Part shown: positions 1 to 1,140 of the stretch, in pieces | Numbering within the stretch: the stretch's first letter is position 1 | Layout of the letters: each line of letters starts with the position of its first letter | Assembly: GCF_003334355.1 (NCBI RefSeq) | Contig: NZ_QOWP01000095.1 | DNA: 1,140 nucleotides | Origin: Escherichia coli | GTDB lineage: Bacteria > Pseudomonadota > Gammaproteobacteria > Enterobacterales > Enterobacteriaceae | Strand: one strand, 5' to 3' | Notes under the pieces: generated by a model | Told to the model about the DNA's origin: nothing | Databases searched by the model: none | Seen by the model: the letters and a program-made list of their open reading frames with translations, nothing else | Position numbers and translations under genes: made by a program

Positions 1-158
1 GTCAGCCTGCCGTGACGGTCATACCGGTAAAGATAGTGCGCGTCACGGGCGATACGGTTATCCGGCCACATGCTGAGGGCGCTGTCCGGGTGCAGCTCCG
101 GGTCGGGCAGGCGGTTACCTGCCGGGTCTGTGGCATACGGGATATCAATGCCCAGGTT
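1..158 (-). CDS. ybfO: 5'-truncated orphan Rhs core fragment (internal Rhs core segment); continues beyond the left edge of the window
   Basis: Minus-strand frame with codons 158-156, 155-153 ... 5-3 translates without stops as [52 protein letters not shown]. This closely matches the Rhs core segment that I recall from RhsA (…[21 protein letters not shown]…WPDNRIA.DAHY.YR.D..GRLTEK), which lies roughly 330 aa before the DPxGL end of the core. GC content is high (58% in 1..60, 72% in 61..120), typical of Rhs core DNA. There is no ATG, GTG or TTG between the upstream TAA (191..189) and the homology start. The first in-frame ATG is at 71..69 and has no recognisable Shine-Dalgarno. It could equally be annotated as a pseudogene or remnant. 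The symbol ybfO is tentative and from recollection. Confidence 0.65.
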
Positions 159-188
159 ACATATAATAATAAGAGCAATTAACTTAAT

Positions 189-515
189 TTATTTGTTTAT
201 AATGCGCTTACTTAATACAAACCATTGAATATACCCTCCTGACAGAAAATAAAGCCATATTATTATCGCCATAATATACTTACTATCAATCCTTACGCCA
301 ATAATGTCTGATACAGTCCCTATAAATATTAGAGCAATAAAGAATACTATGCCTGTTGGAAAACATATTACCATCATTCCATAAGACATGAGACTAATTA
401 ACTCGCTCACATCACGAGTGGAGTCTAATAGTGAAAGTCTATGCATGGAAAAGAATAGTATTAAAAGCGATAAAGCCAGCCATATAGCTCTGAATAAAAA
501 AATAATATATTTCAT
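189..515 (-). CDS. ybfB: Small multi-pass inner-membrane protein (108 aa), presumptive cognate immunity protein for the upstream Rhs C-terminal toxin
   Basis: ORF of 108 codons with ATG at 515..513 and TAA at 191..189. A GGAG Shine-Dalgarno sits at 526..523, 7 nt upstream of the ATG. The start overlaps the toxin stop by 1 nt (TAATG), the usual toxin-immunity coupling arrangement. The protein has three hydrophobic segments by eye (IIFLFRAIWLALSLLILFFS, MMVICFPTGIVFFIALIFIGTV, IMAIIIWLYFLSGGYIQWFVL) and is very AT-rich (about 27% GC in 181..240), like the toxin tip and unlike the flanking core DNA. The symbol ybfB is from recollection of a 108-aa membrane protein downstream of rhsC in E. coli K-12; treat as tentative. 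Confidence 0.8.
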   Translation of the reverse strand: MKYIIFLFRAIWLALSLLILFFSMHRLSLLDSTRDVSELISLMSYGMMVICFPTGIVFFIALIFIGTVSDIIGVRIDSKYIMAIIIWLYFLSGGYIQWFVLSKRIINK

Positions 516-1140
516 TACATCACTCCGGTGAATACAAATCTAATAAAACGTCCAATGTTATTTCCGGAGCACTTCATCTTACATGTTTCTAAAGAATCAT
601 TAGACCAGTCTTGGCAGTTTTTAAATAGCCCTAAATTTATAGGTGTGAATATATCAGGCAATACAGAATAACGCGGCCTTACCTCTTTAAACTTCCCTTT
701 TAAACAGTTCTCCACACAACTATTATCGGTTTCAACGAGGTCACAACGGCCAGCAGCTTCTTTTGTATCATTACTTGCTTTACCTGGCCCCCATAGACCA
801 TCTCCTTTTGATTCTCCCCGTTGGTCTTGGCCACCACAAGTATAGTCCCCTTTACCATCTGGGACACAAAGATATTGATGATAGAACGGATTCCCCCATA
901 TATCTGGACCGCTTCTTTCACCAGTTCCGCCCATTGAATGCAGTGGCTTAATGCATTTTAGTGTTTCTAATCCTAATGGATCTATATTTGAGATCGGATT
1001 CAACGGATACTGATAAAAATTCCATCCCCCTTTCAGCCCAATCGGATCCTGAGTGATATATCGCCCCTGCAGCGGGTCATAATAGCGGTGGCGGTTGTAA
1101 TACAGGCCGGACTCCTCATCATACTGCTGCCCCGGCAGGC
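515..1140 (-). CDS. rhsC: Rhs-family polymorphic toxin, 3' portion (conserved core terminus plus variable C-terminal toxin domain); 5' end lies beyond the right edge of the window
   Basis: My manual translation of the minus strand upstream of the ORF-track start stays open to the window edge and reads [57 protein letters not shown], the canonical end of the Rhs repeat-associated core with the PxxxxDPxGL demarcation motif. The 'M' the ORF track places at 1003..1001 is a TTG codon inside this frame, not a real start. After DPLGL comes a 150-aa tail (967..518) with 9 Cys and a Gly-rich stretch, ending at a TAA stop (517..515). The symbol rhsC is a recollection-based guess from the 108-aa membrane protein neighbour and the downstream core fragment; Rhs cores are too similar between paralogues to assign on the core alone. 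Confidence 0.85.
518..967 (-). other. Variable C-terminal toxin domain of the Rhs protein (150 aa, Cys-rich, unclassified)
   Basis: Sequence after DPLGL: [150 protein letters not shown]. It has 9 Cys and 2 His, and I do not recognise a known toxin-family signature. Base composition differs from the core (about 32% GC in 541..600 versus about 58-72% GC in the core-derived stretch 1..120). Confidence 0.7.
523..526 (-). promoter_or_regulatory. Shine-Dalgarno (GGAG) for the immunity gene, embedded in the last codons of the toxin CDS
   Basis: Minus-strand sequence upstream of the immunity start reads ...TTCACCGGAGTGATGTAATG: GGAG, then a 7-nt spacer, then ATG. The same bases encode the toxin's final residues F-T-G-V-M. 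Confidence 0.6.
968..997 (-). other. PxxxxDPxGL motif ([10 protein letters not shown]) marking the Rhs core / C-terminal toxin boundary and the likely autoproteolytic cleavage site
   Basis: Direct translation: P at 997-995, D at 982-980, P at 979-977, L at 976-974, G at 973-971, L at 970-968. Upstream lies the conserved [20 protein letters not shown] block. Confidence 0.85.

Follow-up and report, generated by a model that had tools for sequence, protein, structure and literature searches.

Partial rhs cores of varying length that carry dissimilar tips and lie as direct repeats downstream of intact rhs genes were described by Jackson et al. (2009; PMC2935791), who attributed them to the displacement of an incumbent tip by a laterally acquired one. 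Most of these displaced fragments possess no translational start; they are regarded as "likely functionally silent" and are often degenerate (PMC2935791). Such units were later named orphan rhs-CT/rhsI modules by Poole et al. (2011; PMC3150448), who pointed out that in other bacteria orphans often occur as fusions with full-length genes, and that initiation signals are retained by the orphan immunity genes. In Salmonella Typhimurium LT2, a repeat of 522 bp with 95% identity suffices for recombination between the main and the orphan gene; once the locus has been duplicated, this event joins the orphan tip to the main gene, and the resulting recombinants outcompete their ancestors (Koskiniemi et al., 2014; PMC3967940). 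Reactivation by recombination has been established experimentally only in this strain (PMC3967940). Here, we report on a stretch of Escherichia coli DNA of 1,140 nucleotides (contig NZ_QOWP01000095.1; referred to as the window), in which positions 1 to 158 of the minus strand very likely (probability about 0.9) represent the 5' end of ybfO (rhsO), the orphan rhs-CT module that C-terminal displacement has left at the E. coli rhsC locus. This finding is correct but already known and annotated: ybfO is a textbook case of C-terminal displacement at a polymorphic toxin locus, and its detection has little significance beyond confirming that an orphan Rhs module can be recognized from raw sequence.

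Comparison of the rhsC-ybfB-ybfO Locus with Described Orphan Modules

All genes of the window are located on the minus strand and comprise the 3' end of rhsC (1140..515), ybfB (515..189), and the orphan fragment (158..1). The same element is present in E. coli K-12 MG1655 as ybfO (rhsO, b0703) followed by ybfC, with the same junction, spacer, reading frame and neighboring genes. Only one mismatch in 1140 nt, at window position 80, distinguishes the window from the corresponding rhsC-ybfB-ybfO region of the K-12 genome (NC_000913.3, 733151..734290); this single-nucleotide polymorphism (SNP), which exchanges an alanine (window) for a threonine (K-12), is the sole difference to K-12 ybfO. The G found in the window is the state of the main rhsC core and occurs in other natural strains as well, while A (Thr) is present in the orphans of K-12, W5-6, C41 and EC93; the G would fit a gene conversion event between the orphan core and the main core. 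In K-12, ybfO is annotated as a pseudogene; the NCBI Prokaryotic Genome Annotation Pipeline (PGAP) describes the element as "incomplete, missing N-terminus".

The orphan of S. Typhimurium LT2 (STM0292; PMC3967940) resembles ybfO in that a partial core, a distinct tip and a dedicated immunity gene are positioned directly downstream of rhs(main)-rhsI(main), and in that the orphan repeats part of the main core in direct orientation. This repeat has 522 bp at 95% identity in LT2, compared to 1020-1045 nt at 97-98% identity for ybfO. The Rhs proteins of the two loci belong to different clades. Recombination, toxicity and delivery through a type VI secretion system (T6SS) have been demonstrated for the LT2 orphan, whereas ybfO is known here from its sequence. 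We found only incidental mentions of ybfO and rhsC in the literature, with no expression or recombination data for the locus.

Within K-12, yibJ at the rhsA locus and ylbH at the rhsD locus are organized alike: a partial 3' core follows the immunity gene, and both are annotated as pseudogenes. They retain approximately 471 nt (yibJ) and 252 nt (ylbH) of core sequence, compared to the 1045 nt of ybfO, which is by far the longest of these fragments. The breakpoints hence differ among yibJ, ylbH and ybfO, and each of the fragments goes back to a displacement event of its own. A further core fragment of about 183-213 nt is located near yibJ at the rhsA locus (locus-extract positions ~7620-7830; yibJ at 6222-6923 and ylbH at 5950-6660). 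Orphan cdiA-CT/cdiI modules of E. coli EC93 and EC869 share with ybfO the missing initiation signals, a retained demarcation motif and the expressible immunity genes that follow, and they have been proposed to hold diverse toxins and immunity functions in reserve (PMC3150448). They differ in belonging to the CdiA family with its VENN motif and two-partner secretion, and they possess no homology to the Rhs core.

The Orphan Fragment Begins in the Middle of the Rhs Core

The initial annotation of the window, made from its letters alone, had described an Rhs core fragment that begins mid-domain at about position 158, behind the TAA stop codon of an immunity gene (191..189) and an AT-rich spacer of 30 nt. 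Our data bear out this arrangement. The spacer (188..159; ATTAAGTTAATTGCTCTTATTATTATATGT) contains five G or C residues in 30 positions, and the reading frame behind it, taken together with its continuation past the left edge, aligns to the NCBIfam model NF041261 (RHS_core; 1261 positions) from position 906 to position 1261 with an E-value of 2.8e-231. The orphan hence corresponds to the last 28% of the core, and its score of 770.8 bits falls below the cut-off of 2000 bits for full-length proteins, which classifies it as a fragment and not as a full-length RHS_core member. The RHS domain of Pfam (PF03527) is also contained in the extended frame. Relative to RhsC, the orphan starts at the equivalent of residue N894; the N-terminal 893 residues are missing, and with them the delivery region and the greater part of the YD-repeat shell. 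The transition is likewise visible in the base composition, with a GC content of about 0.6-0.7 in core sequence vs 0.2-0.4 in the tip, the immunity gene and the spacer. At the junction, the GC content rises from 0.18-0.23 (sub-windows 141-220) to 0.62-0.72 (sub-windows 41-160), that is, from about 0.2 to about 0.7 across positions 160..120.

With respect to the point at which homology starts, the position proposed initially stands by the reading frame and by PGAP, which independently lets the partial pseudogene begin 31 nt past the end of ybfB (window 158), and it can be refined at the nucleotide level. The orphan core aligns to nucleotides 2695-3738 of rhsC with 97.2% identity over 1045 nt, yet near-identical homology to full-length cores (K-12 rhsA, rhsB and rhsC) starts only at window position 143. 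The patch in front of it, 158..144, encodes NLGID in the window and NLDIR in the aligned full-length cores (K-12 rhsA-D, O157 TR01, STEC435 and WCHEC000837). Among the sampled rows of a search over 5426 complete E. coli genomes, the matches in genomes without the junction also start only at position 143. An exact search with the junction 26-mer AACCTGGGCATTGATATCCCGTATGC gave 0 matches in 100,044 species-representative genomes; thus, no donor or full-length core that reads NLGID was found. The poor match of the patch and the near-identity from position 143 onward place the true breakpoint between codons 894 and 899 of RhsC. The patch itself represents either the scar that the non-homologous end of the insertion left behind or what is left of a diverged (donor) core.

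The Orphan Lacks Initiation Signals

Reading of the frame from the ybfB stop codon to the ATG at 71..69 revealed no in-frame ATG, GTG or TTG codon, and no Shine-Dalgarno (SD) sequence at a useful spacing precedes this first ATG. Its best calculated pairing with the anti-SD sequence amounts to -3.2 kcal/mol at a distance of 10-12 nt, compared to -6.1 kcal/mol at 6 nt for the ATG of ybfB. In-frame ATT, ATA and CTG codons of the spacer are not accompanied by SD sequences either (0 to -0.9 kcal/mol). The frame and the pairing energies agree with the initial annotation, which had regarded an upstream in-frame start with a ribosome-binding site as one observation that would speak against a displaced module; there is none. 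A run of 39 codons without a start is expected by chance in about 15% of cases (3/64 per codon). Such a run is thus not improbable on its own; what carries weight at the junction is the mid-domain start of the homology rather than the lack of a start codon. Because the initiation signals are missing, we infer that the orphan is silent, that is, not translated as such.

No terminator was detected between ybfB and the orphan or anywhere else in the window, nor in the interval that separates rhsC from ybfC on the coding strand; the orphan is therefore probably co-transcribed with rhsC-ybfB. The five promoter-like matches of the window compare with 3.8 +/- 1.8 expected, are placed in the AT-rich ybfB gene and are not evidence of function. 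A window-internal search found no repeats or structures within the spacer, and no Rfam family was detected on either strand of the window at E <= 1. Two antisense open reading frames (ORFs) on the plus strand (12..182 and 70..228) were rejected as spurious; such frames are usual opposite GC-rich coding sequence.

The Module Continues with Its Own Tip and ybfC

According to the initial annotation, the tip and the immunity gene of the orphan should lie beyond the left edge of the window, where they could be traced by extending the sequence leftwards. In K-12, the orphan frame remains open for 516 codons and runs through the rest of the core and the motif PVQYIDSMGL into a tip of 152 amino acids, which is followed by ybfC. 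The closely matching genomes that were sampled, K-12 among them, continue leftwards in the same manner with about 1 kb of core, the 152-amino-acid tip and ybfC, so that the left flank consists of core and tip as expected. The ybfO tip is unrelated to that of RhsC, and nucleotide homology to rhsC stops at the demarcation motif. The ATG of ybfC overlaps the TGA stop codon of the orphan (ATGA) and is preceded by an SD sequence, GAGAGGAA, with a pairing energy of -6.0 kcal/mol at a spacing of 7 nt. A 3' core without its N-terminal part, the missing initiation signals, the module's own tip and ybfC, and the occurrence of the same tip on full-length rhs genes elsewhere (see below) all substantiate the proposed displaced orphan rhs-CT module, and no evidence contradicts its identification as ybfO.

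Between lineages, the tip and ybfC show ratios of nonsynonymous to synonymous substitution (dN/dS) of 0.10-0.26, which also reflect time spent attached to a full-length gene. Both are 100% identical between K-12 and STEC435 despite flanks that differ by 1-3.5%. The orphan and rhsC cores form a direct repeat of 1020 nt (ungapped; 97.8% identity) with a period of 1871 nt, in which the longest perfect block extends over 224 nt. In the demarcation motif of the ybfO tip, DS replaces the canonical DP of PxxxxDPxGL, and the full-length proteins of O157 and STEC435 carry the same replacement.

Distribution of the Junction and of Full-Length Alleles

We surveyed the 5426 complete E. coli genomes for the ybfB-orphan junction, counting matches that cover at least 80% of the junction query. 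About half of them (2644) possess the junction; it has a single form in the sampled rows, and none of these rows contains ybfB with a different downstream sequence. The ybfO tip together with ybfC was detected in 3617 genomes, so that about 970, i.e., roughly 1000, carry the tip without the junction (3617 - 2644). In all three genomes of this group that were sampled, the tip is part of a full-length Rhs protein. In agreement with the figure of about 970 genomes, 17 of 58 full-coverage rows from a spread sample bear the full-length annotation "RHS element core protein". These frequencies of the junction and of the tip without it are the modest value that the survey adds.

The O157:H7 strain TR01 and STEC435 contain an rhs gene of 4200 nt (1399 amino acids) with the ybfO tip, directly followed by ybfC, at the same locus between kdpF-ybfA and ybgA-phr. 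Strain WCHEC000837 encodes a full-length Rhs protein of 1395 amino acids with the ybfO tip at the rhsB locus (nikR...yhhJ). The presence of the same tip and of a ybfC homologue at the rhsB locus indicates that the tip module moves between rhs loci. The ybfC homologue of WCHEC000837 has 96.3% nucleotide identity.

A fusion of the main gene with the orphan is predicted to have a length of 6071 - 1871 = 4200 nt, exactly that of the full-length alleles at the same locus; the same length is also expected for the gene before displacement. The 3' cores of the alleles from O157 TR01 and STEC435 differ from the K-12 orphan core at 20 and 24 positions, vs 28 and 34 positions from the main core. This somewhat greater similarity to the orphan core fits the notion that the orphan core is the remainder of an ancestral gene with this tip. 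SNPs in the 1 kb that the cores share form a mosaic with no single crossover point. W5-6 and K-12 are 99.96-100% identical in the flanks of the locus, but their rhsC genes reach only 97.3% identity over the first 2694 nt; through exchange among paralogues, the core changes far more rapidly than the sequence around it.

Since roughly 1000 genomes carry the tip without the junction, and since the sampled ones carry it on full-length Rhs proteins, ybfC of K-12-like strains may plausibly act as a live orphan immunity gene against real competitors.

Origin of the Module and Alternative Explanations

Following the model of Jackson et al. (2009), the locus would once have held a full-length rhs gene with a ybfO-type tip and, behind it, ybfC. 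An AT-rich cassette obtained by lateral transfer and composed of a 3' core, the K-12-type RhsC tip and ybfB would then have recombined into the core; with its insertion, the final 28% of the old core would have come to lie farther downstream, together with the old tip and ybfC. Co-transcription with rhsC-ybfB would permit production of YbfC from its own SD sequence and ATG, and thereby immunity to tip-carrying E. coli. By analogy with Salmonella LT2, a crossover that depends on RecA could excise 1871 nt and thereby rejoin the old tip with the full-length gene. The substrate for such a re-fusion is present in form of the 1020-nt repeat, and since this repeat is longer and more conserved than that of the Salmonella orphan, ybfO should be the better substrate for recombination as judged by repeat length and identity. 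Both silence and the capacity for reactivation are well motivated but inferred for the E. coli orphan, the latter with a precedent in Salmonella. Main-by-orphan recombination in E. coli could conveniently be measured at the rhsC-ybfO locus, which would serve as a natural system.

Several observations weigh against this scenario or parts of it. The full-length alleles with the ybfO tip could be ancestral, or they could have arisen through secondary deletions and re-fusions; gene conversion among rhs paralogues obscures the history behind the mosaic SNP pattern, in which ancestry and secondary re-fusion look alike. Searches of Pfam and NCBIfam assigned no family to either the putative toxin tip of ybfO or the putative immunity protein YbfC. 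Clade I loci of E. coli "generally" lack dissociated tips (Jackson et al., 2009; PMC2935791), which places the ybfO locus among the exceptions. A maintained reservoir is also at odds with an IS3 element inside the orphan core of W5-6, a frameshift in the orphan of EC93, and the N-terminal truncation of the main rhsC gene of C41(DE3) (Table 1). Moreover, K-12 is not known to possess a T6SS; even a re-fused gene may therefore have no delivery route in such strains. This background, together with the damage to two of the four sampled orphans, would suit a pure relic, a displacement by-product that decays and serves no function today, in which only ybfC, if anything, is selected as an orphan immunity gene and re-fusions are rare accidents. 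The pseudogene annotation of ybfO, the intact ORF and SD sequence of ybfC, and the description of such fragments as silent and often degenerated (PMC2935791) fit this explanation as well. We nevertheless consider it possible rather than probable, given that neither K-12 nor C41 shows an interruption of the 516-codon frame, that the tip is unchanged between the orphan of K-12 and the attached form in STEC435 notwithstanding their diverged flanks, that the dN/dS values are low even if part of this constraint stems from attached phases, and that the use of orphans in recombination has been demonstrated in Salmonella (PMC3967940).

Other explanations question the silence of the displaced module. 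Starsta et al. (2020; PMC7043789) demonstrated P2 promoters inside Salmonella rhs ORFs, where main as well as orphan tips are expressed internally, and reported that E. coli contains P2-like sequences; a homologous region of 108 nt is present in both ybfO and the main rhsC gene (window ~1138..1034). A core promoter upstream of the DPxGL motif, combined with a weak internal start, might hence produce little tip toxin along with YbfC, in the manner of a toxin-antitoxin module that acts inside the producing cell. In the homologous region, however, the Salmonella -35 element TTGACG is replaced by ATGATG, and the -10 element TACAAT reads TACAAC and has lost its invariant final T; the promoter scan was empty at this site, the vicinity of the tip offers no in-frame ATG, GTG or TTG codon preceded by an SD sequence, and the region, judged by eye, stays below the 80% identity threshold used in PMC7043789. 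Such internal expression is improbable, and the same holds for a non-silent orphan overall, whether through low-level synthesis of tip and YbfC or through rare read-through products; the sequence evidence argues against both. An independent gene for a YbfO protein of 477 amino acids is more doubtful still. The ORF from ATG 71..69 is uninterrupted up to its stop codon in K-12, where the ybfO feature begins at this codon, but the ATG lacks an SD sequence, its methionine is a conserved core residue within SMWPDN that RhsC shares, and the homology runs 29 codons further upstream; the product would be a shell fragment devoid of 72% of the core model, and ybfO is now annotated as a pseudogene. We attach next to no credence to read-through of the ybfB stop codon or reinitiation at a non-canonical spacer codon, which would lead to a YbfB-Rhs fusion or an N-terminally ragged fragment. 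The TAA at 191..189 does share its frame with the orphan core, from which it is separated by 10 sense codons, and its read-through would yield the fusion; yet this shared frame has a chance of 1 in 3 and is probably a coincidence, the spacer contains neither an SD sequence nor a structure, and we know of no precedent. TAA is, in addition, the most efficient terminator codon of E. coli.

Further Features of the Window

The coordinates of the features are compiled in Table 1. The ATG of ybfB overlaps the TAA stop codon of the RhsC tip (517..515) by one base, and the presumed role of ybfB is to confer immunity to the K-12-type RhsC tip. No toxin family for this tip emerged from Pfam or NCBIfam, and YbfB has no match in NCBIfam.

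Table 1. Features of the 1,140-nt window and further sites in related strains (window coordinates unless stated otherwise).
Feature	Position	Strand	Remarks
Main rhsC core, 3' end	968..1140	minus	PxxxxDPxGL demarcation motif, DPLGL at 982..968; NF041261 positions 1229-1261; annotated as rhsC
K-12-type RhsC C-terminal tip	515..967	minus	150 amino acids, 9 Cys, AT-rich; stop codon TAA 517..515
ybfB, hydrophobic protein of 108 amino acids	189..515	minus	From ORF list and annotation; stop codon TAA 191..189
AT-rich spacer, ybfB stop to orphan core	159..188	minus	30 nt, 17% GC
Orphan Rhs core fragment, 5' end (ybfO/rhsO; b0703 pseudogene in K-12)	1..158	minus	Continues past the left edge
Ambiguous junction segment AACCTGGGCATTGAT (NLGID)	144..158	minus	8/15 identical to AATCTGGATATCCGC (NLDIR) of the cores
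First in-frame ATG of the orphan frame	69..71	minus	Start of the K-12 ybfO feature (b0703)
Polymorphic site in the orphan	80	minus	G in the window (Ala), A in K-12 (Thr)
Other sites (locus-extract coordinates)	K-12: start of the ybfO feature 7221 (window 71), PVQYIDSMGL 8170-8190, ybfC 8651-9220; WCHEC000837: full-length rhs with the tip and the ybfC homologue 4328-9081; first 2694 nt of rhsC: W5-6 3433-6126, K-12 2584-5277		
Decay sites (locus-extract coordinates)	W5-6: 8665-9827; EC93 or C41(DE3) extracts: 2743-4255, 842-2386		

Inspection by eye of the N-terminus of YbfC revealed a segment that resembles a Sec signal (MKRVLFFLLMIFVSFGVIA/D), YbfB is very hydrophobic, and the RhsC tip contains 9 cysteines within its 150 residues. 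These properties of the predicted proteins are hints that both toxins may act in the envelope or the periplasm.

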